Positions 8,276-43,173 of a stretch of 64,000 nt of DNA are shown piece after piece. The first letter of the stretch is position 1, and each line of letters begins with the position of its first letter. The position numbers and the translations under genes are program-made. This stretch comes from a bacterium (GTDB lineage: Bacteria; Vulcanimicrobiota; Xenobia; Xenobiales; JADMJV01). The notes beneath the pieces were generated by a model. It was not told where the DNA came from and did no database searches. It saw nothing but the letters and a program-made list of their open reading frames with translations. Where the stretch lies: positions 9,019 through 73,018 of the forward strand of contig JASBRJ010000049.1 of assembly GCA_030149525.1 (NCBI GenBank), read 5' to 3'.

Positions 8276-8340
8276 CGGTCAAGTCCTTTCACGACTCCCC
8301 CAGTCTCCATATTGCGGACAGCGAAGGATTCGACCAACCT

Positions 8341-9639: not shown

Positions 9640-10571
9640 GCGGCCACCGGCTCCACTGGAACAGGGCCTGAACCATCCTTGTCGAGAGTAGCGGCAAACG
9701 GGCTGATGGCCCGGACCACACTACCAACCTGTTGTCGAGTGAGACCTTCTTTGCTCATCTTAACAGCCAGCATATCAAGATCAGTTACCAATCCCTCGCA
9801 GAGCGCCACCAGTCCGGCCGCCACATGACAGGTGTCTTGAGGCTGGTCCAGCACCAGAACATGATCCCCTAAATATTGGCGCCACACATTCTCCACTCGT
9901 CGCCGACCCTGGTCGGGTATCAGGAAGAAAGGATGATAGCTGCAGCTCAACTCATCGACGACTTGCTGTAACGGGATATCTCTCTCGATATCCGCGTCGA
10001 TAAGCGATTTTACCACCGACTTGGAGGTGGTCTTAAACGGCGGCTCGTCACCGGTCATAAAGAAGTAGCCTCGTTTGTTACGTCGCTCCATGCTGTCGGT
10101 GATGGTGTGTCGGGCGGCAAAATACATGGCAAGGTCGTAAGACTCTCCGCCGTTTCCTCCGCCTCGACCCTCCAACCAACTCCAGGTCAACCAGCGGTCA
10201 ATATCCTCCGCCGTGGACTCAAATTGCCCTACCTGTAGCGGACCACTGTCACAGAAGGCATCTCCGAAGGCGAGAAACATCACCTGAGGGTCGGTCACAC
10301 CCGAGGCAAGAAGGCCCTGCATGAAGTGGGGCAACTCGGTCTTGGCCAGAAGCTCGGGGATGGTTCCCATGGAGCCGGTAACATCCAGAGCGAAGACAAT
10401 GGGTAAAGAGTTCGGGTGATCCGCGCTGTCCCGGCTCTCTCTGAACTTCACACCATGCGGATTCATCAGGGGATGAACCTTTCGCTGGCGAAAGACCTCT
10501 TCCCGGCTCTTTGTGCTCCTGGTGGAAACAATCTCCTGATGCGCCTTGTAGCTGTAATCTCCGTATCCCAT
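9633..10571 (-). CDS. von Willebrand factor A (MIDAS) domain protein
   Basis: IVFALDVTGSM (DxTxS MIDAS), GGGNGGESY, FMTGDE. ATG at 10571 has a GAGG RBS; 7-bp overlap with the PurA-like start. Confidence 0.85.
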   Translation of the reverse strand: MGYGDYSYKAHQEIVSTRSTKSREEVFRQRKVHPLMNPHGVKFRESRDSADHPNSLPIVFALDVTGSMGTIPELLAKTELPHFMQGLLASGVTDPQVMFLAFGDAFCDSGPLQVGQFESTAEDIDRWLTWSWLEGRGGGNGGESYDLAMYFAARHTITDSMERRNKRGYFFMTGDEPPFKTTSKSVVKSLIDADIERDIPLQQVVDELSCSYHPFFLIPDQGRRRVENVWRQYLGDHVLVLDQPQDTCHVAAGLVALCEGLVTDLDMLAVKMSKEGLTRQQVGSVVRAISPFAATLDKDGSGPVPVEPVAAW

Positions 10572-10600
10572 ATGGGTTTCCTCACTTTCTTGTTCACGCA

Positions 10601-11425
10601 CTAGAGCGCGAACGGTACGAACCGAGGCGGACCAAATTCCGCCCTGGCAACTTTTTTAAGCTCCGACTGCAAATGATGGGGACGATCAAATTGGTAGGCC
10701 GACTCGGCCAGTTCACGGAGCGCCCTGGGAGCGCCGCTCCCCATCAACTCGGTCAGACAGCGACCACTGTCGGCAAGATCCTGGTGCGCTCCCATCACCG
10801 CCTCTCCCCAGCCACAAAAGGCCACTCCGTGGTCTCTCGGGTGAACCAGGAGATGTTCAGGCCGCAGTGCCCGATGGCTGTATCCCAAATCTCTCAAAAC
10901 TGTTATCTGGTCGAGAACCCGGCTCCAAATCCATACCAGCGCTGCAGGGTCAAGGCCGGTGGGTCTGCGCTTGCGAGCATAGGCAAGAGTATGGACAAAC
11001 CCGCTTCTCCATCCCGTTACCAGGACGGCTTTTCCACGCCAGGAGCCGAGCTTGAGCGGCTGGGGAAGCAATCTGTCTAAGTAGGAATTCCGGTGTTGAA
11101 GATGACGCAGGCTCGACCACTCAGACTCCAGTCGCTCGACATCCTCTGCCACCTTGAGAACGACTTGCCGGGTGGCCGCACAGGCTGTTCGCGCCAGCAG
11201 CACTTCAGAATGCCCACCAACAGCGATTCTGCCCCGAACTCGATAGCGCGCCGAACCCAACTCCACTTCAAAAAGTCCGGCTGGAACAAGCTCAGGCCGC
11301 GGCTCAGGAATTCGATATCCAAGGTCTACTGCAGGTTTATATTCGGTATCGCAATACAGACACAGATAGCCCGAAAGGGGGGCTCCGCAGTTGGAACAGG
11401 TCTTGGACAAAACATTTATGCTCAT
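10601..11425 (-). CDS. Zn-ribbon + protein kinase-like (probable pseudokinase)
   Basis: CSNCG...CLYCD zinc ribbon, IAVGGHSEV Gly-loop remnant, VVLK lysine, HRALRPEH in place of HRD, FCGW in place of DFG. Start is ATG 11425 or TTG 11410. Confidence 0.75.
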   Translation of the reverse strand: MSINVLSKTCSNCGAPLSGYLCLYCDTEYKPAVDLGYRIPEPRPELVPAGLFEVELGSARYRVRGRIAVGGHSEVLLARTACAATRQVVLKVAEDVERLESEWSSLRHLQHRNSYLDRLLPQPLKLGSWRGKAVLVTGWRSGFVHTLAYARKRRPTGLDPAALVWIWSRVLDQITVLRDLGYSHRALRPEHLLVHPRDHGVAFCGWGEAVMGAHQDLADSGRCLTELMGSGAPRALRELAESAYQFDRPHHLQSELKKVARAEFGPPRFVPFAL

Positions 11426-11434
11426 AATGAGCAT
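11418..11434. promoter_or_regulatory. Perfect 8-1-8 palindrome, candidate operator in a divergent region
   Basis: ATGCTCAT-A-ATGAGCAT lies at the 5' end of the kinase/vWA/PurA operon, about 100 bp upstream of the divergent HK/RR operon. Confidence 0.5.
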
Positions 11435-11535
11435 TATGCACAATTCGCCAAGACTTGTCAATTCTTCTCAAAAAGAGCATAAATATCTTAAAAGACGGCT
11501 CAAGGGACCCAATACTCTCCTCCGAATCCTTGGGT

Positions 11536-12735
11536 ATGAACTCCCGGAGAGCAAAAAATTGGCGAGAGCAACTCCGGGCGACGTTAGTCCAGGAGCCCTC
11601 GCTCATCAGTCTGACGTTGCGTTGGTTCGGTTGGTTCGTGGCTCTAGCTATCTACTTCCTCAACGCCGCGCCGACGGTGAACCTTGAAAACACCCCACCC
11701 GTCCTGGTCGTGACGTCCATCCATCTCTTTCTCATGAGCCTGTACCCGCGCCACATTAGAGGCCGACTCTCAAAGAAGCTCTCTCAGAAGGTCCCCGCCC
11801 TTTGGCCCGCCCTCGATGGAGTCATCGCCATCTGGTCTATCTACCAGACAGGAGGTTGGGACAGTCCTTTCTATCACTACGGAGTGACCGTAGTGCTCGC
11901 CCCTTCCCTTCAGTTCGGGCTTCTAGGCGCTCTTCTGTCCTCCACGGCCTTCTCCATAGCTTTCATGATCGTAGTGAAAATGACCGAGCAAGGCTTCAGT
12001 CCCGCCTACGCGGGCAACCAGGCTGAGCCGGATCTGGTAAGCAGCCCTCTCAACCCACTCATGATAGCCCTCTACGCCGCCTTCCTGGGAGAGGTTCTCA
12101 AGAAACTTCGCCGAGAGATGGAACGCTCAAAAATTCTTGCTGCTGAAAACGAGCGAGCCAGAATGGCAGCCGACATCCACGACGGCGTCTCTCAAACACT
12201 CTTCATGCTCAGCATGTCGTTGGAGACGGGCAAAGTTCTGGCTCAAAAAGAAAAGGCCGACAAAACCGCGGTTCACCTGGAGAAATTGGTCCCGGTAGCT
12301 CAGAAGGCTCTAGTGGAGCTGCGCAACGCCATGTATAGCGTGGAGCCCTTGGCCGAGGGAAAACAGACTTTAGCCGAAGCGGTGACTCAGCTGGCCCGCG
12401 ACTATCGATCGGCCACGGGTAAAGACGTTGAATGCTGCTCAGAAGACGGTTTTAGCTGCTCGACGCAACTCTCATCCGAGCTCTTCAGAATGACCCAGGA
12501 GGCTCTCTCCAATGCCTGTCAGCATAGCGGCGGAGACAAGATCAAAGTGTTGCTCTCGAACCGTTCCATCCAGGTTGTCGACAACGGCAAAGGGTTCGAC
12601 CGGGCCTCCATCAAGCCAGGTCGGGGGCTGGGGAACCTCGAAAAGCGTGCCCACGAGCGAGGAATTGCGCTGGAGCTTTCAAGCGGCGACGAGGGCACAA
12701 CCGTGACCTTCACATGGAATGAGGACGAACCGTGA
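11536..12735 (+). CDS. Membrane sensor histidine kinase (HisKA_3, NarX/LiaS type)
   Basis: Several TM helices, ERARMAADIHDGVSQ H-box, QEALSNACQHS N-box, DNGKGFD, GRGLGNL. Likely start ATG 11536. Confidence 0.92.
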   Translation: MNSRRAKNWREQLRATLVQEPSLISLTLRWFGWFVALAIYFLNAAPTVNLENTPPVLVVTSIHLFLMSLYPRHIRGRLSKKLSQKVPALWPALDGVIAIWSIYQTGGWDSPFYHYGVTVVLAPSLQFGLLGALLSSTAFSIAFMIVVKMTEQGFSPAYAGNQAEPDLVSSPLNPLMIALYAAFLGEVLKKLRREMERSKILAAENERARMAADIHDGVSQTLFMLSMSLETGKVLAQKEKADKTAVHLEKLVPVAQKALVELRNAMYSVEPLAEGKQTLAEAVTQLARDYRSATGKDVECCSEDGFSCSTQLSSELFRMTQEALSNACQHSGGDKIKVLLSNRSIQVVDNGKGFDRASIKPGRGLGNLEKRAHERGIALELSSGDEGTTVTFTWNEDEP

Positions 12736-13400
12736 TAAGGATCATGTTGGTCGACGACCACGATATGGTGAGAGCCGGTTTAAGAACGGCTATCGAGATT
12801 GAAGACGACATGGAGGTCGTGGCAGAGGCCTCCAGCGGCGAAGAGTGTCTGGACCAACTGCCGTCGGTTGCCGTCGATGTCATTCTCATGGATGTGATGA
12901 TGGAAGGCCTGGGAGGTGTGGAAGCCTGCCGCCTGGTCAAAGAACGAGGTCAGCGACCGAGAGTTCTCATGCTCACCTCCTCTTCGGACGAACAGGCGGT
13001 TCTCTCCTCATTAGTGGCCGGGGCCAACGGCTATCTCCTTAAAAATGTTGGTCGAGACGAGCTGTTACGCAGTATCCGGGCTGCCAACGACGGTCAGACA
13101 ACTCTAGATCAGAACGTCACAGCCCTGGTCACCAAGCAGCTCATGAGCCTCTCTCAAGGGCAGGGTGAGTCCGGTTTGAGTGGGCAACTGGAAGAGAACC
13201 CCCTTTCCGAGCGAGAGATGGATGTTATCGGCCTCATCGCTCAGGGGAAAACCAACAAGGAGATCGCAGCGGAGTTGATCATCGCCGAAAAAACGGCTCG
13301 AAATCATGTCAGCCGGATCCTCACTAAACTTGGTCTCACTCGCCGAAGTCAGGCCGCCGCCTGGGCCATCAAGGCCGGTCTCTACGATGAAGAGGTCTAA
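12732..13400 (+). CDS. NarL/LuxR-family response regulator
   Basis: IMLVDDH, DVILMD, MLTS, GYLLK receiver; LSEREMDV...NKEIA...TARNHVSRILTKLG HTH. GTGA overlap with the HK. Confidence 0.95.
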   Translation: MIRIMLVDDHDMVRAGLRTAIEIEDDMEVVAEASSGEECLDQLPSVAVDVILMDVMMEGLGGVEACRLVKERGQRPRVLMLTSSSDEQAVLSSLVAGANGYLLKNVGRDELLRSIRAANDGQTTLDQNVTALVTKQLMSLSQGQGESGLSGQLEENPLSEREMDVIGLIAQGKTNKEIAAELIIAEKTARNHVSRILTKLGLTRRSQAAAWAIKAGLYDEEV

Positions 13401-13403
13401 GTC

Positions 13404-14336
13404 ATGAGTGTTCAACCACGAGTTTCGGTGGTCGTACCCGCCTTTAACGAGGCGAACTCTCTTCCCACCCTTTGCCGAAGAATCGATCAGATTCTCACCC
13501 AAGAATTGGGTGAGACCTACGAACTGATTCTGGTCGACGACGGCTCCATCGATAACACCTGGGACTCCATCCAGCGGCTCACCGAGCAATTCCCCGTTCA
13601 CGGACTCAGACTGAGCCGCAACTTCGGCAAGGAGTCGGCTCTCTGTGCCGGCATCGAAATGGCGCAAGGAGAGGTGGTCGTTTCCATGGACGGCGACCTG
13701 CAGCACCCTCCGGAACTCCTGGCTTTGATGATTGAGAAATGGAGAGAAACGGGCTGCGATCTCGTTGAGGCTGTGAAAACGAGGGCGCAGAACGAAGGGA
13801 CAGTTTCAAGACTTCGCGCCAAGATTTTCTACAAGGTCTTCTCCGTTCTCTGCGGCTTCGACCTGAGCGGCATGACCGATTACAAGCTACTGACTCGCTC
13901 GGCCCGAGAAGCCTGGCTGAATATGCCGGAAAGAACTCTCTTCTTTCGAGGAATGACCAACTGGATCGGCTTCCACCGTGAAACCGTTCAGTTTCAGGTT
14001 CCCGATATTGAGGATCGGCACAGCCGGTGGTCTTTCACCGGACTCCTGCGCTACGCTCTCCGCAACATCACCGCGTTCACCGCCGTTCCGCTCTACCTCT
14101 TCGCTTTTCTTGGCCTTTTCTTTCTCTTTCCAGCCGCCATACTCGCACTCGACACTCTTCGTCGTTGGTTTCAGGGAGTGGCGGTGGAAGGCTTTACTAC
14201 GGTCATCATTCTGGTTCTGCTGGTGGGAGGTCTGAACTTCATCGGCTTGTCCGTGCTTGGCCTTTATCTGGGAAGGGTCTATGAAGAGGTCAAACAACGG
14301 CCGCGATACATCATCAGGGCTCGCACCGACCGGTGA
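13404..14336 (+). CDS. Glycosyltransferase family 2 (GtrB/ArnC-like, two C-terminal TMs)
   Basis: VVVPAFNE, LVDDGSxD, RNFGKESA, MDGDLQHPP, EVKQRPRYI. Confidence 0.92.
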   Translation: MSVQPRVSVVVPAFNEANSLPTLCRRIDQILTQELGETYELILVDDGSIDNTWDSIQRLTEQFPVHGLRLSRNFGKESALCAGIEMAQGEVVVSMDGDLQHPPELLALMIEKWRETGCDLVEAVKTRAQNEGTVSRLRAKIFYKVFSVLCGFDLSGMTDYKLLTRSAREAWLNMPERTLFFRGMTNWIGFHRETVQFQVPDIEDRHSRWSFTGLLRYALRNITAFTAVPLYLFAFLGLFFLFPAAILALDTLRRWFQGVAVEGFTTVIILVLLVGGLNFIGLSVLGLYLGRVYEEVKQRPRYIIRARTDR

Positions 14337-15205
14337 GACTGAGAGTTCACGCCGACGACCTGGGAGTCTGTCCAGCAGTTACCGACTCTATTCTTCAAGC
14401 TCACGCAGACGGTGTTCTCCAAAGTTGCAGTCTGTTGGTGAATACGGTTGGAACTCACGACGCCCTGGAGAAGATAAGAGGCTTTCCCAAACTCCAACTG
14501 GCTCTGCATTTAAACCTGATCGAGGGGGCTCCCCTTTGCCTTCCTTCCCAGGTGCCGGATCTGGTGAACCGGAACGGGCTGTTCAAAGGAACTCTAAGCT
14601 CACTTGTGAGCCACGGAATCCGCCCTTTTGGCAAGAATATCGAAGAACAGCTCAGGAGAGAGCTACGAGCTCAGTTCCTATTTTTCACCGATCACCTGGG
14701 GCCGCCCCAATGGGTTGATAGCCACCTTCACCTCCACGCTTTGCCCTGGGTTTACCCCATCGTACAGAGCCTCTGCCTGGAGTTCGGTGTAGGACAGATC
14801 CGAATGCCTCGACGCTTCGTTTTCCTGGACGGATTCGGCACGGAGAAACGCCCTGTTCAGACCCTGAAATCCGTGATTCTCAGCGGGCTCTCTCAGTGGT
14901 TTCGCATGCGAGGAGCCGCGGCCAAAGACGATTATGTCTTTACCGGAGTTCTCTCAACCCAAGCCGTGAACCAAGCCCTGACAAAAATCCCGCCGAGTTC
15001 CAGTGTGGAGCTTCTCTTCCATCCCGGTGCGCCCCCCGAAAACGAAAACCAACTCGCCCACCACCCTGCCTATCTACGAGAGGTCCACTTTCGACCCGCC
15101 CGGGCTTTGGAACGTGAGGTCTTGTCGTCCACTCAGTTCCGCGACGTTCTGCAAAGCTGGGGCCACCAAGGTGAGTCATCCCAAGAGAAGAAGCAAACCT
15201 TATGA
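14333..15205 (+). CDS. ChbG/HpnK/YdjC-family carbohydrate deacetylase
   Basis: HADDLG, LHLNL, DSHLHLH, ELLFHPG, E at the RALERE motif. Confidence 0.88.
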   Translation: MRLRVHADDLGVCPAVTDSILQAHADGVLQSCSLLVNTVGTHDALEKIRGFPKLQLALHLNLIEGAPLCLPSQVPDLVNRNGLFKGTLSSLVSHGIRPFGKNIEEQLRRELRAQFLFFTDHLGPPQWVDSHLHLHALPWVYPIVQSLCLEFGVGQIRMPRRFVFLDGFGTEKRPVQTLKSVILSGLSQWFRMRGAAAKDDYVFTGVLSTQAVNQALTKIPPSSSVELLFHPGAPPENENQLAHHPAYLREVHFRPARALEREVLSSTQFRDVLQSWGHQGESSQEKKQTL

Positions 15206-16182
15206 CCCGACGCAGAGAAGAACTTGTATCGGCCCCAAACCTGGACTACCCCACTTTCACCAAGGTCCAGTACCAGGTCTTTCATGAGTTGGTCAAAGCC
15301 CAGGGCGCCGACCTCTCCTATATCACGGAAGAGTTCTATCGCTGGAAATACAACCCGCCCGCAGGCTCCGGCAAGACCGCCGTCATTTATCTGGACGACG
15401 AGATGAGCGCCGTCAACTCCATGTATCCCTTTCAGATCCGCTCACCCTTCGGTCTACACAAAGGTTGGCAATCCTGTGATACGGCCACCATGCCTCAAGC
15501 ACGAGGCCAGGGGTGTTTTTTCAGTTGCATCAGTCAGCTCAAGAGTTCTTTAGCTCAGGAAGCCTTGTTTTTCGGTTTTCCCAATCAGAATTCCAAGAGG
15601 GGATTCGAGAAGCTGGGATGGAGTGTATGGCGGGAAGTCGACACCTGGGTCTTTCCTCTCGTCCTGGCCCGGAACCCTCAGCCGACAAGTCTTCAGGAGT
15701 TTGAGAAATTCGGAGAAGCTGTCGATCATCTCAATTTGCAGATTGCTTCTCAAGGATTAACTTATCTGGATCGCAACGCTGCCTATCTCAACTGGCGCTA
15801 TCTCCAGCATCCCCAAGTGAAGTACCGAATCTTGGCCTGGGTGGAGAACGAGCAATGGCTCGGCTTCGTGGTCACACGTGAAGCCCAGGTGAAAGGGCGA
15901 CGCTTTTTGTTCATCATGGAACTCTGGTCACTCACTCCAGAGTTGGAGAGAGCCTTGCTCTCTGCTTGCGTCAGCGTGGCGGCCCAGCAAAAACTCCGCC
16001 ATGTGCTGCTTTTTGACAGCGGTCATAACGACTGGGCCAAGTGGAGCAGTGGTTTTCTCCGCATACCTCGCCGCTTTCTCCCCAAGCGCCAACTCCTCAT
16101 GGGAGAAGTGGTGGGCTATTCCAATGCGCCGCTTCAGCACATGAATTGGCGCACTCAACTTGGAGATTGGGACGCCTTCTAA
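15202..16182 (+). CDS. GNAT-family N-acetyltransferase
   Basis: WKYNPP, DTATMPQARGQG, FGFPNQNSKRGFEKLGW, YLNWRY, LGDWD. Confidence 0.8.
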   Translation: MTRRREELVSAPNLDYPTFTKVQYQVFHELVKAQGADLSYITEEFYRWKYNPPAGSGKTAVIYLDDEMSAVNSMYPFQIRSPFGLHKGWQSCDTATMPQARGQGCFFSCISQLKSSLAQEALFFGFPNQNSKRGFEKLGWSVWREVDTWVFPLVLARNPQPTSLQEFEKFGEAVDHLNLQIASQGLTYLDRNAAYLNWRYLQHPQVKYRILAWVENEQWLGFVVTREAQVKGRRFLFIMELWSLTPELERALLSACVSVAAQQKLRHVLLFDSGHNDWAKWSSGFLRIPRRFLPKRQLLMGEVVGYSNAPLQHMNWRTQLGDWDAF

Positions 16183-33614: not shown

Positions 33615-36056
33615 TTAGTGTCGGCGAACCTGGAGCGTGAGCAGGCTTGCCTGCCCAACGTCGTACTTGCGCGTTTGTCCCGAACACCAAAGATGAAACT
33701 GGTCCATGTAGTTACGGCTGCCCGGATGTCCCGATTGTCCGGTAGGCAAGACGGAACGATATTCTTGAGGGTCGGTCATTTCCACCACTTGACGGAAAGA
33801 CGGGCACCAGGCGTTGGCCTCAAAGGGTAGAGCCGGATTCACGATGGTTTGGAAAACTGTATCTGCGTCTCCTCCTGCCGACCCCGTGGGGCTGTTGAGG
33901 AGCATTGCCAGCAGGGGCTGACTTCCCAGGGCGTGCTTGAACTGGATGCGGTGTAACTTACCCCACTCCCAGTATTTGGGATTGCGACCGTAAGCCTTGG
34001 AGAGTTGATTGAAGGCCTCTCCCAGGTGTTCTTCCAGAATCTCGGCACGATCTCTCAGACTCGGGACCAGTTGCTGAAGCCTGGTGTAGGCGGCGTCATT
34101 CTCAAAAAGCTGGAGAACCCAGACCGTGTATCGTCCGCCATGTCCTCCCAGAGTGCTGAACGGGTTTCTACTACCACCCAGCAGACTGCTCCCCAAACGC
34201 TCCCCCAGGACGGTGTGGGCAACTTCTTTTGCGACCCCGAGGAGAGCCACCTGATAGAGAGCCATACCGCCACTTTCAGGATGTCCGCTTCCATCCCACT
34301 CCGAAAGCCAGATCTTTCCCTTTTCCGCGTCTTCTCGCGAAAACTTGTGGTGGGCACACAGCCGACCAAATCGGAGCCCCGTAGCGCAGTGTACATCCAC
34401 CTGCATGGAGACAAAATCTTCCACTTCGAACTTCGGCTGAGAAAGGAGAAGCTCTTCTATCCTTTCCGCTCTGGTGGAACTCATCCAATCCCAGGTGAGA
34501 TGGTAGGGGTATTCTGGACCCACCACGGGGTTGTTGGCCGTAACGATATAGCCACAGGCTGGATTGTCTGCCTGGGGAAGCTCTTCAAACGGTATGACGC
34601 CGTCCCATTCATACTCACCGTTCCAACCAGGGACCGGAGTAAGACCCGTCCCCTTCTTCCGCATGGGAACCTGACCGGCCATGATGTAGCCGATATTGCC
34701 GTCCGCGTCGGCGAAGACAAAGTTGGAAGAGGGAGCCTGCCATGTGCGAAGCGCTTCCTTGAATTGCGAACAGTTCGTGGCAGAATTCATTTGGTAAAGA
34801 GTCTGTACCGGGTGAGAGGGCTCGAAGTTCATCCAGCGCAGGGCGAGCCCCAGGCTTTTTGAGCGAAACAAGATGGGTCCGTGCCGGGTGCACTCAACCT
34901 CCTCCACATGATCCTCTGCCCCTCGTACAACGATACGCTCTCTGCGAACCGTAACTCTCTCCCAACCGTCTTCCGTCTCGTAAAGGGCTGGGTCATCGGG
35001 AGAAAACCGCTCCATGTAGAGGTCCTGAGTGTCGGCATAGGAGTTCGTGACTCCCCAACCCACCTTGGGGGAGCTACCGATGACAATGAAAGGCACACCG
35101 GGGAAAGAGGCCCCTCTCACGTCCAGTTCGGGCGAGACCAGGCGACTCTCATACCAGATACTGGGGACCCGCCCTACTAGATGAGGATCACTTGCCAACA
35201 AAGGCTTACCGGAACGTGTTCGACTTCCCGAAACCACCCAGGCGTTGCTACCACCGGGAAGACCACTGTTAGGAAGAAATCCCCGGGCCTCTTGGAAAAG
35301 CTCTCGAAGCCCGTCCAGAACCAGTTTGCTGGACTCCCCGGGGGGGACCGTACAGGCTCCCTCCCGCTGGTAAAGGTGGAGAAGCTCAGCCACCTCCGGA
35401 CTGACCTTTTCCAACATCTCGCCTCGAGTGAGTTCTTGCTCCCAATTGGCACACAGATCCATGGACATCACCTGAATCCAGGCCAAGGTGTCTTCCGGTG
35501 TCCACGGTTGGGGAGAAAACTTGAGAAGTTGGAACTCTACGGGCAAAACCTTCAGGGAGTTAATACCGGCGTTCACTCCAGCGCAGAAAGCGTCCAGATG
35601 CTCTCTCTCCTTCTCGGTGAGAGCCTCAAGATCCGAACGTGCCGCCGTTCGCAGACCCAGCTTACGGAGAAAGATATCGGCCCTCAGAGCTTCCTTGCCC
35701 ACGATCTCCGCCAATCGTCCCTCACCCAGTCGACGATTGAGTTCCATCTGCCATAATCGATCTTGGGCCTGAGCGAACCCTTGACCGAAGAGAACGTCGA
35801 CCAGAGAAGACCCTTCTATGGTCGGCACGCCGTAGTCGTCGCGACGGATGGTCACCTGACTGTGAATTCCATCGACCGCAACGGTTCCTCTCCGTCTGGG
35901 CAAGGAGCGTCTTAGCCAGAGACGCAAGACTAACCAGAACATAAGCCCCAGAAAGATCAGTCCGGCCATAACTTGTAGCACAGGGTGATTGACGTACCAA
36001 TCTAATTCGAGGAGTCGAAAGAAACCATCCCTGAGGAGAAAGGCCGTAATGCTCAT
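33615..36056 (-). CDS. Penicillin acylase family (S45 Ntn-hydrolase)
   Basis: RDDYGVPTI, AQDRLWQM, GGSNAWVV nucleophile, DPHL, TANN, GQSGHPGS; N-terminal TM. Confidence 0.95.
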   Translation of the reverse strand: MSITAFLLRDGFFRLLELDWYVNHPVLQVMAGLIFLGLMFWLVLRLWLRRSLPRRRGTVAVDGIHSQVTIRRDDYGVPTIEGSSLVDVLFGQGFAQAQDRLWQMELNRRLGEGRLAEIVGKEALRADIFLRKLGLRTAARSDLEALTEKEREHLDAFCAGVNAGINSLKVLPVEFQLLKFSPQPWTPEDTLAWIQVMSMDLCANWEQELTRGEMLEKVSPEVAELLHLYQREGACTVPPGESSKLVLDGLRELFQEARGFLPNSGLPGGSNAWVVSGSRTRSGKPLLASDPHLVGRVPSIWYESRLVSPELDVRGASFPGVPFIVIGSSPKVGWGVTNSYADTQDLYMERFSPDDPALYETEDGWERVTVRRERIVVRGAEDHVEEVECTRHGPILFRSKSLGLALRWMNFEPSHPVQTLYQMNSATNCSQFKEALRTWQAPSSNFVFADADGNIGYIMAGQVPMRKKGTGLTPVPGWNGEYEWDGVIPFEELPQADNPACGYIVTANNPVVGPEYPYHLTWDWMSSTRAERIEELLLSQPKFEVEDFVSMQVDVHCATGLRFGRLCAHHKFSREDAEKGKIWLSEWDGSGHPESGGMALYQVALLGVAKEVAHTVLGERLGSSLLGGSRNPFSTLGGHGGRYTVWVLQLFENDAAYTRLQQLVPSLRDRAEILEEHLGEAFNQLSKAYGRNPKYWEWGKLHRIQFKHALGSQPLLAMLLNSPTGSAGGDADTVFQTIVNPALPFEANAWCPSFRQVVEMTDPQEYRSVLPTGQSGHPGSRNYMDQFHLWCSGQTRKYDVGQASLLTLQVRRH

Positions 36057-36106
36057 GACCGCAAGTTTGGGGAGGTACCGGTCGGGGCCTGCCGCAATTT
36101 CAAGCT

Positions 36107-36754
36107 ATGGAAGAAACCTTGCACGAAGCCTGGGAGAGTAACGCTCTAGAATGGACGAGAGCGGTTCGTGAGAATGTCATCCCCAGCCGAAATCGAGTGA
36201 CCAACGCCGCTATTCTTGAGGCGATCAAGAGGTGCCGGGGAGAGTGTGTCTTGGACCTCGGCTGCGGGGAGGGCTGGCTATGTCGAGAACTCCTTCGGCT
36301 GGGCTGGAAGACCTGGGGAGTGGACTCGTCGCCAACTCTCATAAAGCTTGCCGAAGAGAACGGCCCCGGCCGCTATCACTGCGGCAGCTACCTGGAACTG
36401 GACACACTTTTTCAAGCGAACTCCTTTGATCTGGTGGTGGCAAACTTTTCCCTGCTGGGCGAGCAATCTGCCGAGACCGCCCTGACAAAGGCTCGGGCGC
36501 TTCTCAAACCGGAAGGAGTCTTCCTGATACAAACTCTCAACCCTAAAACACTCAACCACACTGGATGGCAAACGGAAACCTGGGAGAGCTTGGGGACGTT
36601 ACGATGCTCACCCAGCCCTTGGTACTCGAGGACCCTGCAAGGCTGGACCGAGTTGTTCGACTCCTGTCAGTGGAAGATGGAGGAAGCTCTCTGGCCCAGG
36701 CACCCGGCGGACCCCGAGCCAAGCTCCGTCATCTTTAGACTGAGCGTAAGTTGA
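36107..36754 (+). CDS. Class I SAM-dependent methyltransferase
   Basis: VLDLGCGEG, GVDSS, FDLVVANF. Confidence 0.9.
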   Translation: MEETLHEAWESNALEWTRAVRENVIPSRNRVTNAAILEAIKRCRGECVLDLGCGEGWLCRELLRLGWKTWGVDSSPTLIKLAEENGPGRYHCGSYLELDTLFQANSFDLVVANFSLLGEQSAETALTKARALLKPEGVFLIQTLNPKTLNHTGWQTETWESLGTLRCSPSPWYSRTLQGWTELFDSCQWKMEEALWPRHPADPEPSSVIFRLSVS

Positions 36755-37244
36755 AGAGCATCCCGCTCTTTTGGTCTTTATCCAGGTCATCAAGATTGTC
36801 CAGGATGACGGCTGAGGAGGAACAGACTCCTCGAAAGAAACCCACTAGATTCTCCTCGGCCCGCTCGAAATCGTCGGACTCACCGGCCAGGATAGCCTCT
36901 ACCCACTCCACTCCCTGGAACGCCATCTGAATCGCCTTATCCAATTGCCGGAAATACTTGGCGAATTTTTCACTCAGTGCCGGAGACAGTCGTTCGGTGA
37001 AGAGAGACTCCTTTAACTGCCACTTTTGCACGAATTGCTCCAATTGCTCTACGAATCCATAGAACAACCCTTCAAACTCCTCAACATCCATCTCGTCCTC
37101 AGCCAGCATGTCGAGAGCGGAGAGGAGTTGACTCACATGATTGATTCCCACAACCGGAGGACGGCTTTCATGCACGAAACCACACTCGGGACACTCCAGC
37201 GGAGGCCCGCCTTCCAAGTCGGTTCGACAGATGAGGCAAATCAC
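36735..37244 (-). CDS. Zn-ribbon hypothetical protein
   Basis: CLIC...CPECG followed by an acidic helical region. GTGA coupling with the upstream small gene. Confidence 0.7.
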   Translation of the reverse strand: MICLICRTDLEGGPPLECPECGFVHESRPPVVGINHVSQLLSALDMLAEDEMDVEEFEGLFYGFVEQLEQFVQKWQLKESLFTERLSPALSEKFAKYFRQLDKAIQMAFQGVEWVEAILAGESDDFERAEENLVGFFRGVCSSSAVILDNLDDLDKDQKSGMLFNLRSV

Positions 37245-37450
37245 AGGCCGCGCACCGTCAGCCCGAAGATATCCACCAGAAGATCCCGACACACCTCGCG
37301 AATTTGGTCGGGAGACTCAAGCTTCTGCCTCTCCTCCGAAGTGCTGCCCCAAAAATTTCCGTTCATACCCAAAAGACTGTCGAGGTCGTCCATCAGGGTC
37401 CTGATCTTTTCGGTTCTGTCCAGATGAGATACATCTATAGGCTGGCTCAT
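37241..37450 (-). CDS. Small hypothetical protein (69 aa)
   Basis: MSQPIDVSHLDRTEKIR...; translationally coupled to the next gene. Confidence 0.6.
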   Translation of the reverse strand: MSQPIDVSHLDRTEKIRTLMDDLDSLLGMNGNFWGSTSEERQKLESPDQIREVCRDLLVDIFGLTVRGL

Positions 37451-37514
37451 TGACCTAGCCTTCGTTGAGAACACTCATTCCCCTCGGCTCAAAGCCCGGT
37501 AAGGCGTAGAAATG

Positions 37515-37535
37515 AAAAAAGCAGGCGAGCCTGCT
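37515..37535 (-). terminator. Rho-independent terminator
   Basis: On the - strand, AGCAGG-CTCG-CCTGCT followed by a T-run. Confidence 0.7.
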
Positions 37536-37560
37536 GTTTCTCGAGACATGCTAGCGGGGA

Positions 37561-38250
37561 CTAGCCGAATACGCTCTTCAAACCGTTTCTGGCTGCATTC
37601 CAAAGACCCTTAGCCGCATCCAGTTTTTGTTGGCGATACTGGTTGGCAGTACCGGCTCTTTGGGAAGATGTATCGGCAAACTGCTTTAGTGCGCCCCCGA
37701 AGGTTTGGGTCTCCCGTTTAGAGGGGTCGTTGGCAGCCTCCGGAGTTTGGAAGTCTGGAGAGAGAGCGGCCTGAAACTGCTCGGTCATGGGCTGTTCGAA
37801 GGTAGCCATAAAGAGGGTTCCGGTACCGCGATTCTCCTTGATGACTGCGTAGCCGTCGGGGGTGGGTCCGTGATAGACCTCGTTGCCGTCATGCAATTTG
37901 GCGTACTGGAAGGTTTCCTCTTTGTCACCCTTAGTCGTCATGAACATAGCGTCGGTGACTTCGCCCTTTTCATTGGCCTGAGTCATTCCGAAGGTGGAGG
38001 CCTTGGCGACATCAATGCCCATTTTCTCGGCGATCTGCTCTTTGGGGGTGAGGGGTAGAGCGGCGGGCTTTTCGGGAGAAATCGTAACCACTGAGTCGGT
38101 AGGGTCGGTGTCGACGTTCTCTACATTGTCAAGTTTCTGAAATCGCGCAGCCGTTTCCTTAACGTTGTTCATAGTGCTGGTGGCTTTGCTATGAATGGCC
38201 ATCTGGTCTTTGTTCATGACGGCGTGAGTATTTAAGCTGATTGAAGTCAC
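37561..38250 (-). CDS. Hypothetical protein
   Basis: AGGAG RBS before GTG 38250. 229 aa, T/E/K rich, no Sec signal. Confidence 0.75.
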   Translation of the reverse strand: MTSISLNTHAVMNKDQMAIHSKATSTMNNVKETAARFQKLDNVENVDTDPTDSVVTISPEKPAALPLTPKEQIAEKMGIDVAKASTFGMTQANEKGEVTDAMFMTTKGDKEETFQYAKLHDGNEVYHGPTPDGYAVIKENRGTGTLFMATFEQPMTEQFQAALSPDFQTPEAANDPSKRETQTFGGALKQFADTSSQRAGTANQYRQQKLDAAKGLWNAARNGLKSVFG

Positions 38251-38316
38251 TGCGATCTCCTGCATGTTTTGGTATTGCCTTTAGAATAGCGCACAGATGT
38301 TAAAAACATGTGAATT

Positions 38317-39045
38317 TCAGGTTAAGCTTTGCGGTCGGAGCCAGCCGTCCGATTGTTGACAGACCACCACCGGACACACGTTTTCCTGTGCCGCGTACTT
38401 CACATCGGCTTCCATTCCGATACGAACAAGTTTCTCTCCGTGAGGGCACTTGAGGAGGAAGGCAGTCACGTCGTCTTTTCCTTCCAGGTAGAGATCTACG
38501 GCCGTCTCGGCTCGCTTGGAGAGACGGTAAGCGTTGCTCTCGTGCTGAGAAAGAGCCAAGGCCACTGCGCCGGCTAGAAAAGTATCCTCTCTCGACTCAC
38601 TGCCGGAATTCCCCGAGCACACCAGAAGAACGGGCTTTCCTCGGCGCACCAGACAGCTCACTGTGCTCTCCAGATTCAGCATCGACACCACCAACGGCAA
38701 ACCATAGCGTCGCGAGGCTGCAAGAGCCCGGGTGCCGTTGCTGGTGGTGAACCAGAGTCTTCGCCCTTGCACCCCCTTTTCGATCATCTCAAGCGGCGAG
38801 TTACCGAAATGAAAACCCTCCGGCGGTAGGCCTCCTCTTTCCCCGGCCAGCAAACCGTCTTGCTCTACCTCCTGTCGAGCCTGCTCTATGGTTGTTACAG
38901 GAAATATTCCCGCAGCACCGTGATAGAGGGCGGTCACAATCGTGGTGGTCGCGCGCAGCAGGTCGATGACCACCGGGCTCCACTCCAGATTTTGTGGCGG
39001 AGTCTCGTTAGGTAGAGGCAAGACATCTACCAAAAGCCGCTTCAT
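38317..39045 (-). CDS. comB: 2-phosphosulfolactate phosphatase family
   Basis: VVIDLLRATTTI, LAGERGG, GNSP, TTSNGT, REDTFLAG. Confidence 0.92.
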   Translation of the reverse strand: MKRLLVDVLPLPNETPPQNLEWSPVVIDLLRATTTIVTALYHGAAGIFPVTTIEQARQEVEQDGLLAGERGGLPPEGFHFGNSPLEMIEKGVQGRRLWFTTSNGTRALAASRRYGLPLVVSMLNLESTVSCLVRRGKPVLLVCSGNSGSESREDTFLAGAVALALSQHESNAYRLSKRAETAVDLYLEGKDDVTAFLLKCPHGEKLVRIGMEADVKYAAQENVCPVVVCQQSDGWLRPQSLT

Positions 39046-39773
39046 TCCGCTCGCCAGGCTTGCGGCAACGAGTTCTCGGAAAAACCGTGTCGTCGGAGAT
39101 ATACCTCGGTGAGCAGAACGTCTTCCGGACTATGAATATCGAGGCCGCCGTCGTTTTCCACAAAGAGAGTGTGCTCCCCCAGGTAAGGGAACGGCTGAGG
39201 TCCGCGAAGGGGAAAGCAGGACGACACTCGCATCGCTCTGGCCGCTCCGTCAAGCAAAAAGCAGGGAGTCATAGTCTGTCGATTGCTGGACGTTGTCTGA
39301 GGAATATCAGACCAGGGGAGCAAGCGCCCGTCTTCAGTGACCTGGCGGGTTCGGTAAGGATGAACCGATTTGTCGACAAGCCCCGTAACACAAGCGTCGG
39401 CTTCGGGATTGTGTTCCAGGGTCTCAAGACAGGCGTCGATCAGGCCCGGTCGGTGGGTGCCGCAGTTACAGTGCAAAGAGACGAGATACTCCACCTCGGT
39501 GCCGATGGTCTTTAGGGCGTGCTCCAAAGCGTGAGCCAGTTCCGAACGGTCTCCGGAAATCTCCTCTGGCCGTTCAATCACCGTGACGCCATACTCTTGG
39601 GCCAGAGCTTTCAGGTCGTTGCAATCGGTGGAAATATAAACCTTATCGATCTTTGTAGCGTTGAGAGCCGACAGAATAGGGTATGTTGCCAACGGACGCC
39701 CAAGAACAGGCATCACGTTTTTCTTCGTGATAGATTTGCTTCCGCCACGACCGGTAAGAAGGGCAATATTCAC
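39042..39773 (-). CDS. Acylneuraminate (CMP-sialic acid type) cytidylyltransferase
   Basis: LTGRGGSKSITKKNV..LGRPL, YISTD, LDGA, DIHSPED. ATGA coupling to comB. Confidence 0.85.
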   Translation of the reverse strand: MNIALLTGRGGSKSITKKNVMPVLGRPLATYPILSALNATKIDKVYISTDCNDLKALAQEYGVTVIERPEEISGDRSELAHALEHALKTIGTEVEYLVSLHCNCGTHRPGLIDACLETLEHNPEADACVTGLVDKSVHPYRTRQVTEDGRLLPWSDIPQTTSSNRQTMTPCFLLDGAARAMRVSSCFPLRGPQPFPYLGEHTLFVENDGGLDIHSPEDVLLTEVYLRRHGFSENSLPQAWRAE

Positions 39774-39810
39774 GGGTTCATAAGAGCCTTTCAGATAGGA
39801 TTTTGAGACT

Positions 39811-40758
39811 ATGAAGTTAGACTACCGCAGAGACAGTCGTCGAGACCTGGAGTTTCTGGGCCTTCCGGGCACCGACCATTCTATGCCAGAAGACTCCAAT
39901 AAAACCTTTTCCGACGGAAGCCATTTCGGAATCGAGGTCTCCAGTTGCAATACGCCGGAGACCCTCTCCGCCATGCTCGATTTCGCAGCTGAGCGGCAAC
40001 TGCGAATCGACAGATTCATGGAGTGCCGAGGGATCTCAAGACTCACCGACTCCGACATCAAATCCATGGCTACTCTCTGCCACCAGGCCGGTGCAGGACT
40101 GTACCTCTCCATCGGTGCCAGAGCGATCTATGCCACCGGCGCCTTCGTCCGCTCCAAGAACGGAGTCCGCCAAGGCTATCGAATGGTGGGAAGCGAGCAA
40201 CTGTGTCACGGGCTGGAAGAGATTCGTCGAGCCTACGACCTGGGAGTTCGAGGCTTTCTTGTCTACGACGAGGGCTTTCTCGACGTGGTAGGTCGACTCC
40301 GGTCCGACGGTCGACTGCCCGCCGATATTCAGTTAAAATTCTCGGTTCACTCCGGTTGCTCCAACCCGGCCTCGGCTTCTCTTCTCAGGCGTCTGGGAGC
40401 GGACTGCATCAATCCTGTGCCTGACCTTTCCATCTCGGCCCTGGCAGGATTGAGAAACGTCGTGGATTGCCCCTTGGATGTATTTAGCGATACGGCAGGC
40501 GATGCCGGTGGCTTGGTCCGAACCCACGAGGTCACCGATTTCATTGAGAAGGCTTCTCCCGTCTATCTTAAGTGTGGGCCCGTCTCCCAGCCCCATCAGA
40601 ATCACCTTCCCGACCAGCGCGAATTGAAAGAGAGAATTCGACAAACCGCCTGTGTGGTGGAAGAGATTCAGAGAAACGGCTCTCACCTGAAGAGAGTCAC
40701 AAAAGAGGAGCCCACACTCGCCCTGACGAGAGCGGAAGAGCCCGCCCCGGTGTCATGA
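39811..40758 (+). CDS. U32-like TIM-barrel protein, function unknown
   Basis: FLGLPGxD...FSDGSHFGIE, GVRGFLVYDEG, KFSVH, ADCINP, PLDVFSD, PVYLKCG. The family call is from memory. The typical U32 Fe-S Cys motif is not evident. Confidence 0.55.
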   Translation: MKLDYRRDSRRDLEFLGLPGTDHSMPEDSNKTFSDGSHFGIEVSSCNTPETLSAMLDFAAERQLRIDRFMECRGISRLTDSDIKSMATLCHQAGAGLYLSIGARAIYATGAFVRSKNGVRQGYRMVGSEQLCHGLEEIRRAYDLGVRGFLVYDEGFLDVVGRLRSDGRLPADIQLKFSVHSGCSNPASASLLRRLGADCINPVPDLSISALAGLRNVVDCPLDVFSDTAGDAGGLVRTHEVTDFIEKASPVYLKCGPVSQPHQNHLPDQRELKERIRQTACVVEEIQRNGSHLKRVTKEEPTLALTRAEEPAPVS

Positions 40759-41456
40759 GTCTGCTGGAACAACTGGTTGAAGGCAAAGACATCGCCGTCA
40801 TTGCCAAAAATCCGAAGTGCGCCGGTCTCGACTTCCACAACAAGGTGGTGGTCCGCTTTAACAATGACAGCGGCCGTGCGGATATCTGGTGTACTGCCCT
40901 CCACCGCGGTCGCAACGAGGAACTCCTGGACAGCTGCAGCCTGGTCGTGGTCCCTCATCCTTTGGAAGATGAAACCGTGCGGGGTCATTTCGCGGCCTCC
41001 TCAGAGTGGCTGGACAAACCTGTCGAATTTTGCGATCCCCAACCCTACTCCGAGTTGCGAAATAAGTTGAACGCCACCCCCCTCAGCGGAACAGCCTTCC
41101 TTCACATGCTGCGAGGCCTGAACAACTTTAAAAGTTGTACCCTCTATGGCTTCGACGCTCACCTCACCCCCGGAGCCCAGGTCACCTCTTTTAGCGTCTA
41201 CTACAACCACAAACCTCTCATGGATCATCGTTACATCCGATATCTTGTTCTCTTCGACTCCCGATTTCGCGCCGGAGAACATACTCGTCTTTTTTGGCCG
41301 GAAATCTGGTGGAACATCCGTCGACCGAAATATTTCCTGGACAAGCACGCGCCGGTGTTCTTGGAACACCTCAAAAAGGGCAGGCTGCTCCAAGCCTTCA
41401 GCCGTCTTGTAGAGGCGCTCAGAAGCAAAACCGGAGACCAGTCTTCAGAGAAATAA
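40755..41456 (+). CDS. Glycosyltransferase family 29 (sialyltransferase)-like protein
   Basis: IAVIAKN...VVVRFNN (L-motif-like), ATPLSG (S-motif-like), LYGFD, HxxxxDH (VS-like). ATGA coupling at 40755. Confidence 0.6.
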   Translation: MSLLEQLVEGKDIAVIAKNPKCAGLDFHNKVVVRFNNDSGRADIWCTALHRGRNEELLDSCSLVVVPHPLEDETVRGHFAASSEWLDKPVEFCDPQPYSELRNKLNATPLSGTAFLHMLRGLNNFKSCTLYGFDAHLTPGAQVTSFSVYYNHKPLMDHRYIRYLVLFDSRFRAGEHTRLFWPEIWWNIRRPKYFLDKHAPVFLEHLKKGRLLQAFSRLVEALRSKTGDQSSEK

Positions 41457-41506
41457 CGCATCGGTTTGATGTTTTTTTGACATCAGCTTAATACGTTTCA
41501 GAGACT

Positions 41507-42025
41507 ATGAACGTCTCATCATCACTCAAACCGGCTGCCGCGCCGAAACTGTCTCCATTCAAAGCCAACAAGCCCCAAACCAAACCCGAGAAACCTCTGG
41601 ACACCTATCAAAGACTCACAGAAGAGTCGGACCGGTGGTCGACCCTGAGATGGGCGGGGACTGTGGCTCTAGGCACCGCAAGCTCCGCTCTGGCAGGAAC
41701 GTTTCTGGGCGCGCTGAGCGGACCCGCAGGCCGGGCGGCCGGAGCCGTCATGGGGGGAGCGTTAGGCTTTCTGGCCGGAAGCGCTGTGGGCTCCATGGGC
41801 ACCTTGGGTCTGGGATCTGCCGACACTCAGTACAAGGTCATGCAGTATGGAGCCGTGGCCGGTTGCGCCCTAGGAACCCTGATTGGAGTGGCCAACGGAG
41901 CCGGATTTTCACCGGCCGGTGGCGCCGCAGCAGCGGGATTCACCGGCTTTATGGCGAGTAACCTTGTGTCTTTCTATATGGACGAAAAGCTCGACGAAGC
42001 CAATCGAAAGAAAGCCGGGCTCTAA
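41507..42025 (+). CDS. Glycine-zipper membrane-associated hypothetical protein
   Basis: P/K/S-rich N-terminus, then GxxxG-rich hydrophobic helices. Confidence 0.75.
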   Translation: MNVSSSLKPAAAPKLSPFKANKPQTKPEKPLDTYQRLTEESDRWSTLRWAGTVALGTASSALAGTFLGALSGPAGRAAGAVMGGALGFLAGSAVGSMGTLGLGSADTQYKVMQYGAVAGCALGTLIGVANGAGFSPAGGAAAAGFTGFMASNLVSFYMDEKLDEANRKKAGL

Positions 42026-43173
42026 GCGATCTGATTGGCTTTGAGATGCCCGCTCAAAGCGTCTTCCAACAATTGCCGATGGGCCACATCATCGAGTGGC
42101 ACAGGATTGGTCCCGGCACTGGGATCGGCTGTGGCTGCCGAGGCTAACTCCACGGCGTCTTCCGGCACGCCCAACTCAAGAAGAGTGTTTGGAATAGCCA
42201 GCTTTTGCCGAATCTTGAGCACCCATCTCAGGGGGTCTTCCCCAAGGGCGTGGGCCATCTCTTCCCATTTGCCCTTGAGGGCTTTCCTGTTGAACTCAAG
42301 AACATACGGCATCAGTACGGCGTTGAGCATGCCGTGGTGGAGATCGTACTTTCCGCCCAGGGGATGACTCAAGGAGTGGATGGCCCCTAGACCCTTCTGA
42401 AAGGCGGTCGATCCCATAATGGAGGCGGCCAGCATCTTGGAGCGAGCTTCCAGGTTCGCTCCGTCGTTGTAAGCCGTTTCCAGGGCTTCAGAAATGAGAC
42501 GCATCCCCTGAAGCGCGATGCCCGCCGCCATGGGATGGAAAACCGGGCTGCAGTAGGCTTCCAGGTTGTGGGCCAGAGCATCCATGCCGGTGGCCGCCGT
42601 GAGTTTCTTGGGCATCCCCACAGTCAGAGCCGGGTCGGCGATGACTCTGGAGGGGAGCATCCTAGGATGAAAGATGATCTTTTTTAGCTTGCTGTTGCTA
42701 TCGGTGATGATAGACGCTCGACCGACCTCGGAGCCTGTTCCGGCCGTGGTGGGGACGGCGATAATGGGTGCTACGGCCTCTGCCTTGACCCTTTTGTAGT
42801 TGTCCCCCTCATCCACGAAATCAAAAAGAGGGCGACCCTGGCCAACCATAAGGGCCACAGCCTTGCCGGCATCCAGAGGGCTTCCACCACCCAGGGCTAC
42901 CACACCATCACACTGACCTCGTCGATAGGCCTCGACTCCTGCCATGACATTGCCCTCGTGAGGATTCGCCTTCACCTCGGAGAAGACTGCGAAGGGCAAC
43001 CCTGCCAATCGCAGAGCACTCTCCGCCTCCTCCACGGGAGGGAGCGCCACGAGGTCTGGGTCGGTCACAAGCAGGGGGCGTCTGATGTTCAATTCGGCGC
43101 ACGCCTCGGCCAGTTCGCTAATACGCCCTGCTCCGAAACGAATGGGTGTGGGATAATTCCAATTTCCGGTCAT
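42022..43173 (-). CDS. Iron-containing alcohol dehydrogenase
   Basis: GGGSPLD, PTTAGTGSE, TGMDALAH, HSLSH, HHG. Confidence 0.95.
   Translation of the reverse strand: MTGNWNYPTPIRFGAGRISELAEACAELNIRRPLLVTDPDLVALPPVEEAESALRLAGLPFAVFSEVKANPHEGNVMAGVEAYRRGQCDGVVALGGGSPLDAGKAVALMVGQGRPLFDFVDEGDNYKRVKAEAVAPIIAVPTTAGTGSEVGRASIITDSNSKLKKIIFHPRMLPSRVIADPALTVGMPKKLTAATGMDALAHNLEAYCSPVFHPMAAGIALQGMRLISEALETAYNDGANLEARSKMLAASIMGSTAFQKGLGAIHSLSHPLGGKYDLHHGMLNAVLMPYVLEFNRKALKGKWEEMAHALGEDPLRWVLKIRQKLAIPNTLLELGVPEDAVELASAATADPSAGTNPVPLDDVAHRQLLEDALSGHLKANQIA

Follow-up and report, generated by a model that had tools for sequence, protein, structure and literature searches.

The DNA analysed here, 64,000 nucleotides of contig JASBRJ010000049.1 (assembly GCA_030149525.1) from a Xenobiales bacterium and referred to below as the window, carries at 38317-41456 a compact cassette of four genes. 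Our reading, to which we give a probability of about 50%, is that the cassette specifies a self-contained pathway in which a synthase, a phosphatase, a cytidine monophosphate (CMP)-activating enzyme and a transferase would successively handle a non-canonical 2-oxo or 2-hydroxy acid, with the chemistry deduced from the protein families. The family assignments, the coupling of the genes, their co-occurrence elsewhere and the island status of the region are supported directly; the order of the steps and the nature of the product are what we infer from them.

The cassette is built of two gene pairs that diverge from a 37-bp spacer (39774-39810). On the minus strand, a diverged NeuA/PseF-like cytidylyltransferase of 243 amino acids with a GTG start (39042-39773; PF02348 match) precedes a ComB-family (2-phospho-hydroxy-acid) phosphatase of 242 amino acids (38317-39045; PF04029 match), and the stop of the former overlaps the start of the latter in a 4-base ATGA (39042-39045). 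On the plus strand, a triosephosphate isomerase (TIM)-barrel protein of 315 amino acids, distantly related to U32 and aldolase-like in fold (39811-40758), is followed by a protein of 233 amino acids resembling the sialyltransferase fold of glycosyltransferase families GT29 and GT42 (40755-41456), again with a 4-base ATGA shared by stop and start (40755-40758); both were assigned from AlphaFold models and Foldseek searches. Homologues back the chosen start of the cytidylyltransferase (MNIALLTGRGGSK) and that of the fourth gene (MS/MT..LLE.LV). A preliminary description of this DNA had reported two ATGA-coupled pairs across a 37-bp divergent spacer, and direct reading of the window bears this out. 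The 2+2 arrangement is not due to chance, because a metagenome contig (L001) repeats the divergent layout with 4-bp overlaps and all four genes at 42-73% protein identity (TIM barrel 62%, cytidylyltransferase 73%, ComB 42%, fourth protein 43%). A consensus scan of the spacer found no sigma-70-like promoter, and a promoter and terminator scan with a repeat search around the cassette gave nothing above chance. The 21 bases ending in the start codon are 81% alike for the TIM-barrel gene (39795-39815) and a glycine-zipper gene further along (41491-41511) (..GAGACTATGAA), and may represent a shared translation-initiation region.

The preliminary description had treated the four genes as one unit, and their association does recur: besides L001, a locus in Desulfobacteraceae (L018, with L017 a near copy) has cytidylyltransferase, TIM barrel, ComB and a 257-aa protein in this order and in one direction, and the protein in fourth place passes the Pfam GT29 threshold (PF00777, E 2e-15). 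From L001 and L018 it follows that a cytidylyltransferase and a sialyltransferase-type protein join the TIM barrel and ComB in two sub-branches of the TIM-barrel tree, with transferases that are not orthologous. The link between the TIM barrel and ComB is tighter still. A ComB gene lies nearby at 15 of the 16 loci whose TIM barrel is at least 47% identical to that of the window (16 of 17 with the window included, the exception being L012), and at none of the 67 loci where identity is 44% or less. In a maximum-likelihood tree the ComB-linked TIM-barrel sequences form a single branch with 100/100 support. The conserved core of the cassette is thus the pair of TIM barrel and ComB.

The TIM-barrel protein matches no Pfam or NCBIfam family above cut-off. 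Its score against U32 (PF01136; E 0.019, 14.7 bits) is under the gathering score of 22.4, so that the earlier label "U32-like" fails the Pfam cut-off for the window protein itself; the distant kinship that it implied is nonetheless real, since the U32 profile weakly matches 34 of the 37 relatives compared (best 9e-6), over barrel strands 4-6. An AlphaFold model built with an alignment of these 37 sequences is a confident (beta/alpha)8 barrel (mean predicted local distance difference test score, pLDDT, 90), in which an arginine-rich loop at residues 101-126 is strongly conserved and modeled with low confidence. Searches of Protein Data Bank (PDB) chains with the single sequence and with the profile gave nothing useful. 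The best Foldseek matches of the model are class II aldolases, the U32 protein Mk0906, inosine-5'-monophosphate dehydrogenase (IMPDH) and PrpB-type lyases, all with template modeling (TM) scores of about 0.45-0.56, and therefore no close structural relative is apparent. The preliminary description had proposed a structural comparison with aldolases and with synthases that depend on phosphoenolpyruvate (PEP); YdjI and tagatose- and fructose-bisphosphate aldolases lead the list, at a modest TM of 0.47-0.56 and an identity of 12-14%, and a DAHP synthase appears only at rank 48 (TM 0.44).

The family to which this barrel belongs counts at least 174 protein clusters and occurs in at least 577 species genomes, of Myxococcota, Chloroflexota, Actinomycetota (including cultured Streptomyces), Acidobacteriota, Bacteroidota and others, and where the National Center for Biotechnology Information (NCBI) names its members it calls them 'peptidase'. 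The likely catalytic residues E42, E71, D153, K176, H180, D205, D223, D227 and K254 and the lid arginines are common to the ComB-linked and the non-ComB clades; pocket residues differ between the two clades. A conserved cysteine set, which in UbiU/UbiV-type members of U32 provides the Fe-S ligands, is not kept across the family: only the ComB-linked clade conserves C72, C183 and C255, and the other 65 sequences have T, H/Q and T at these places, so that nothing points to an Fe-S site common to the whole family. The U32 superfamily (RlhA, TrhP and the prephenate-dependent hydroxylases UbiU/UbiV; Mk0906, PDB entry 5D88) resembles the TIM barrel in the weak but consistent profile matches and in Mk0906 being the third-best Foldseek match. 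It differs in that the TIM barrel stays under the Pfam threshold, in the cysteines not shared by the whole family, and in a genomic context of small-acid metabolism and not of RNA or quinone hydroxylation.

The identification of the second core protein as a ComB-family phosphatase, made in the preliminary description, is secured by a full-length match to PF04029 (E 1.4e-60, 204.7 bits against a cut-off of 26.4; profile positions 4-224 of 226). The NCBIfam ComB models match it at E values down to 1e-43, yet it stays under every equivalog cut-off (best 146 bits against 323; TIGR00298 94.5 against 175). Characterised ComB enzymes reportedly cleave 2-phospho-hydroxy acids, namely phosphosulfolactate, phospholactate and phosphoglycolate. 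In the literature searched, nothing relevant turned up that combines ComB with cytidylyltransferases, Mur ligases or U32 proteins. Each of the four cassette genes is present in one copy in the genome.

The cytidylyltransferase is, as had been claimed for it, a member of the superfamily of NeuA-type CMP-sugar synthetases, with a diverged sugar pocket. It matches PF02348 (CTP_transf_3; E 3.8e-12, 46.9 bits against a cut-off of 22.6) and NeuA structures at E 4e-14 to 3e-11, and its residues 2-220 align with the Neisseria meningitidis CMP-NeuAc synthetase 1EYR. The PseF model scores 67.7 bits (E 1.1e-18), below its cut-off of 205.7, and the PseF and KdsB equivalog scores are not reached. The loop that binds cytidine triphosphate (CTP), GRGGSKS..KKN, is retained (GRGGSKSITKKN, aligned to ARQNSKGLPLKN of 1EYR, R..GSK....KN), and the NeuA sugar-pocket motif QPTSP is replaced by LHCNCGTH and D-I-D by D-I-H. 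Relatives that are 45-60% identical, at other loci, carry these changes too, which sets the enzyme and its kin apart as a subfamily of about 90 clusters whose sugar pocket is altered.

Three further observations concern the loci of these cytidylyltransferase relatives. An unannotated family of about 465-480 amino acids, with no Pfam or NCBIfam match, recurs beside close relatives (L107 4586-6004 and 8998-10440; L110 3071-4498; L111 4552-5949; L112 3008-4432), on contigs of which some look planctomycete-like; it could be a transferase that uses the same CMP-linked donor. Sulfotransferase genes lie beside or near the relatives in three of six contexts (L107 6858-7673; L108 5213-5845; L109 12669 to the end). 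In Mariprofundus sp. KV (L109 4496-6729), an Eda-type KHG/KDPG aldolase, a 269-aa protein with a DxDG start and a 45%-identical cytidylyltransferase stand in a row within a polysaccharide locus, which would make a second trio with a non-homologous aldolase and a possible phosphatase. The DxDG start suggests a HAD phosphatase, but searches of Pfam, NCBIfam and the PDB gave no confirmation, which leaves this as a hint only.

The fourth protein has no match in Pfam, NCBIfam or the PDB by sequence, a profile search of PDB chains gave nothing useful either, and its family is tiny, with 8 representatives found among 1.84 billion proteins in a full HMMER search. A word-indexed search returned a near-identical copy only, and a scan of metagenome contigs with a close alignment of the family found no relative. 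Its AlphaFold model (pLDDT 82) has the Campylobacter sialyltransferase CstII (2x61) as best PDB match (probability 0.98, E 6e-3, TM 0.41), and a phage protein annotated as GT29 (TM 0.51) and an MptE/Maf-like protein are among its matches to viral models. The residues invariant in the family, R34-F35, P109, G132 and H152, follow one another as sialyl motifs L, S and VS do, in a comparison by eye. The protein thus resembles CstII (GT42) and GT29 enzymes in that CstII is its best structural match and in an N-terminal nucleotide-binding strand followed, in motif order, by R-F-N, P-L-S-G and an invariant histidine; it differs in having neither a PF00777 nor a PDB-chain sequence match, in a TM score of only about 0.4 and in the size of its family. 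The earlier assignment to GT29 accordingly stands as a likeness to sialyltransferases in predicted structure and by-eye motifs, and does not stand as a PF00777 sequence match.

Elsewhere, the TIM barrel and ComB serve other company. At ten loci of Polyangia/Myxococcota (L003 3011-12616; L002, L011-L016, L019, L020) the pair is followed immediately by a MurL-MurD fusion, MurE and a third Mur ligase. Beside it lie genes for a PglC-like phosphoglycosyl transferase and a MurJ-family flippase, as well as for a flavoprotein resembling L-2-hydroxyglutarate oxidase. That these Mur genes are the housekeeping set was considered and ruled out; each of the genomes holds further MurE copies elsewhere, so the Mur genes are an accessory set, and the operon may build a second, undescribed glycopeptide. 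Two gammaproteobacterial loci (L022 8001-16537; L010) have, in this order, the TIM barrel, a GH3 amido-synthetase, an alpha/beta hydrolase, an enolase-superfamily protein like L-Ala-D/L-Glu epimerases, a thiamine pyrophosphate (TPP) enzyme, ComB and the exporter MatE. A reading of some of these genes as MenD, MenH and MenC of menaquinone synthesis was dropped, the NCBIfam models pointing to a TPP enzyme of acetolactate-synthase or benzoylformate-decarboxylase type and to an L-Ala-D/L-Glu epimerase. The pairing of ligase and epimerase in this operon parallels MurD2-MurL. A Burkholderiales locus (L021) has a TPP enzyme after the TIM barrel and ComB and, slightly further along, a protein like L-2-hydroxyglutarate oxidase.

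Members of the non-ComB clade, in Chloroflexota, Acidobacteriota and others, have as neighbours an IclR regulator, Ldh_2, GlcD/GlcF-like, LarA-like, cupin and creatininase-like proteins and an aldehyde:ferredoxin oxidoreductase. In Streptomyces, a TIM-barrel gene of this clade adjoins one for a protein with adenylation, peptidyl carrier and beta-lactamase domains, resembling nonribosomal peptide synthetases. The loci behind the Chloroflexota and Streptomyces contexts are L024 2160-11809 and L023 2606-6655. Judged by the families of these neighbours, the thread through all contexts of the TIM barrel is the chemistry of 2-hydroxy and 2-oxo carboxylic acids, together with enzymes that ligate or activate carboxylates.

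The pathway that we propose on this basis would run in four steps. The TIM barrel, as a putative metal-dependent, aldolase-like enzyme with an arginine-rich lid, would join a C3 unit, pyruvate or PEP, to a partner molecule and so yield a phosphorylated 2-oxo or 2-hydroxy carboxylic acid. The ComB-family phosphatase would remove the phosphate, the NeuA-like cytidylyltransferase with its altered sugar pocket would join the free acid to CMP, and the sialyltransferase-like protein would move the acid onto a glycan or protein acceptor. The most likely product for the window is a short 2-keto-3-deoxy (ulosonic-type) acid, which is favored because NeuA- and sialyltransferase-type enzymes handle such acids and because the TIM barrel looks aldolase-like. 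Beyond the gene overlaps, the recurring layout and the tie between the TIM barrel and ComB, the pathway has in its favor the neighbors of the non-ComB clade (LarA, GlcDF-like, Ldh_2 and aldehyde:ferredoxin oxidoreductase), whose substrates are 2-hydroxy acids or aldehydes, the row of genes in Mariprofundus, the CstII match, a 35%-identical relative of the fourth protein beside NeuB and Wzm/Wzt, and the fact that a separate nonulosonate cluster in the genome, described below, has a cytidylyltransferase of its own.

This four-step logic of making, dephosphorylating, CMP-activating and transferring an acid is that of the 3-deoxy-D-manno-octulosonate (Kdo) pathway (KdsA-KdsC-KdsB-WaaA) and of the animal route through the 9-phosphates of N-acetylneuraminic acid (Neu5Ac) and Kdn, and the cassette cytidylyltransferase is a true member of the NeuA/KdsB superfamily. 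The cassette differs from both routes in using a U32-related TIM barrel and not a DAHP_synth_1 or NeuB protein, a ComB-family and not a HAD phosphatase, and a GT29/GT42-like transferase and not one of GT30. The logic of the pathway is known, but the enzymes of the first two steps, their strict pairing and the TIM-barrel family itself were not described in the family libraries and literature searched.

The preliminary description had put forward a new nonulosonate-type pathway. The context backs its logic of synthase, phosphatase, CMP activation and transfer, but a nine-carbon product is not supported. The pair feeds Mur ligases, GH3 ligases and TPP or oxidase enzymes in other organisms, which argues for a smaller 2-oxo or 2-hydroxy carboxylic acid. 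The sulfonated analogue that it had named as an alternative may still be the product.

Several points weigh against the proposed pathway. The structural matches of the TIM-barrel model are generic (TM about 0.5), with no kinship to KdsA, NeuB or ComA detectable, and the protein gives no profile match to NeuB (PF03102) or to KdsA/DAHP_synth_1 (PF00793). ComB enzymes are not known to act on distal sugar phosphates, and their specificity would suit a product like sulfolactate more than one like Kdo. Most members of the cytidylyltransferase subfamily lie at loci that lack the TIM barrel/ComB pair. For the fourth protein, PF00777 gives no match; a Pfam scan of nine members of its family, with E values up to 10, gave no GT29, CST-I or MptE match; and a profile comparison of the family with the GT29-like protein of Desulfobacteraceae returned a probability of 2% despite the aligned motifs. 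One relative of the fourth protein (P0123, 43% identity) stands without any of the partners. A speculative reconciliation with the habits of ComB is that the TIM barrel might condense PEP with an aldehyde and keep the phosphate at C2, which would give an alpha-phospho carboxylate suiting ComB.

The strict pairing with the TIM barrel gives the bacterial ComB homologues, long orphans outside coenzyme M and spore sulfolactate synthesis, a defined partner. If the product is indeed a new CMP-activated acid, the surface glycans of bacteria would gain a building block, and sialyltransferase-like enzymes a new donor. In Polyangia, the accessory MurL-MurD and MurE ligases, PglC-like transferase and flippase that accompany the pair hint at an undescribed peptidoglycan-like polymer based on the same acid. 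More tentatively, and with doubts that outweigh our confidence, the U32-related TIM barrel and ComB may form an unrecognised two-enzyme route to a small non-ulosonic 2-hydroxy or 2-oxo acid, for example of sulfolactate or glycerate type, which would be CMP-activated and transferred by the sialyltransferase-like enzyme here and would also feed the Mur-ligase glycopeptide pathway of Polyangia. Should the acid prove not to be a sugar acid, this class of enzymes would for the first time have a nucleotide-activated hydroxy acid that is not a sugar, and the cell surface a new kind of anionic decoration.

The strongest rival explanation is built on the route to coenzyme M and Bacillus spore sulfolactate (ComA and ComB, then ComC and ComDE). 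The TIM barrel would here be a non-homologous replacement of ComA that attaches sulfite, or some other nucleophile, at C3 of PEP and leaves the 2-phosphate in place; ComB would release a 3-substituted lactate (sulfolactate or a glycerate-like acid), which would then be CMP-activated and placed on a glycan. In both systems a ComB-family phosphatase is paired with a TIM barrel, and ComB is known only for chemistry on 2-phospho-hydroxy acids. A profile search of the 97%-complete genome for ComA (PF02679) gave zero matches, so that this ComB, strictly tied to the TIM-barrel clade, is without its usual partner. In the Burkholderiales locus the added TPP enzyme and 2-hydroxy-acid oxidase-like protein match the order of the chemistry, mirroring ComA-ComB-ComC-ComDE step for step, and the non-ComB clade adjoins Ldh_2, the family that includes ComC. 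The cassette differs, however, in that its TIM barrel has no detectable similarity to ComA (just one of the 37 relatives gives a match, at E 0.23, and the 50 best Foldseek matches include no ComA), in having no link to methanogenesis or alkene metabolism, and in passing its output to a cytidylyltransferase and a sialyltransferase-like protein. Sulfite-related genes were not seen in the neighborhoods examined, NeuA-type and GT29/GT42-type enzymes are known solely with 2-keto-3-deoxy sugar acids, and displacement of CMP at the secondary carbon of a simple hydroxy acid has no known precedent. We consider this explanation possible but unlikely, with a probability of about a quarter.

Less probable again is that the cassette unites two unrelated pairs, in which the cytidylyltransferase and the fourth protein would be a spare CMP-nonulosonate synthetase and transferase, with the TIM barrel and ComB forming an independent module for a small acid that only accompanies them. 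The sugars would come from a full cluster of pseudaminic/legionaminic acid (Pse/Leg) type elsewhere in the genome (contig C102 of G000, about 4100-15600; L009), which has PseB-, PseC- and PseG-like genes and in all encodes NeuB with a SAF domain, a PseG-like GT28 protein, a DegT aminotransferase, a PseB-like dehydratase, a formyltransferase, an aldo-keto reductase, a class III aminotransferase, its own CTP_transf_3 protein, an AT3 acyltransferase and a PqqD-like protein. The preliminary description had foreseen that a canonical neuB elsewhere might supply the substrate. Such a NeuB is present on this contig, but its supplying the cassette is not the simplest reading; the cluster owns a cytidylyltransferase and therefore has no need for that of the window. 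A relative of the fourth protein (P0124, 35% identity) that adjoins NeuB and a Wzm/Wzt ABC exporter speaks for two pairs, as does the usual occurrence of cytidylyltransferase relatives apart from the TIM barrel and ComB. This explanation is weakened by the translational coupling, in which the ATGA overlaps join the fourth gene to the TIM barrel and ComB to the cytidylyltransferase, by the recurrence of the association in two sub-branches with non-orthologous transferases, and by the cytidylyltransferase of the Pse/Leg cluster. The loss of the QPTSP sugar-binding motif from the window enzyme is a further point against it.

Finally, it is very improbable that the cytidylyltransferase takes the phosphorylated acid and forms a cytidine diphosphate (CDP)-linked acid from CTP and a 2-phospho acid, as CofC/FbiD do with 2-phospholactate or PEP, for the fourth protein to transfer as a phospho-acid while ComB trims excess intermediate: a match to MobA-like NTP_transf_3 (E 2.5e-6) and the phosphodiester-linked glycerate-type substituents generally known from bacterial polysaccharides are in its favor, but CTP_transf_3 and NeuA, whose members make CMP-O-C linkages, match better, and ComB is so strictly conserved with the TIM barrel that it should be a step on the pathway.

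The four-step pathway proposed for the cassette would have entered this genome from outside, as the cassette is horizontally acquired. In a genome of the same genus (G007), homologues of the acylase (33615-36056) and of the iron-containing alcohol dehydrogenase (42022-43173) that flank the region in the window lie about 150 bp apart, and thus 36057-42021 is an island of about 6 kb. It holds the cassette together with a methyltransferase, three genes without assigned function and the glycine-zipper protein. None of 15 related genomes (7 of the same genus and 8 of the same family) has a homologue of the TIM barrel, and the island and L001 have only the four-gene cassette in common. A repeat search found no target-site duplication at the island ends.

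Marine metagenomes hold the island colinearly, with a 33-kb contig of one marine run at about 98% identity. A marine metatranscriptome contains small contigs of at least 99% identity that lie within the genes for the TIM barrel (168 nt, 40193-40360), a 234-aa protein, the methyltransferase and the glycine-zipper protein, which is weak evidence that the island is transcribed. The 234-aa protein is encoded at 37561-38265 on the minus strand, 51 bp downstream of ComB and in the same direction; it has no Pfam or NCBIfam match and no homologue at the related loci, and may serve the cassette as an acceptor or in an accessory role. Its gene has the best metatranscriptome coverage of the island (37591-38119), is followed by a terminator-like hairpin at 37520-37535, and is possibly co-transcribed with ComB.

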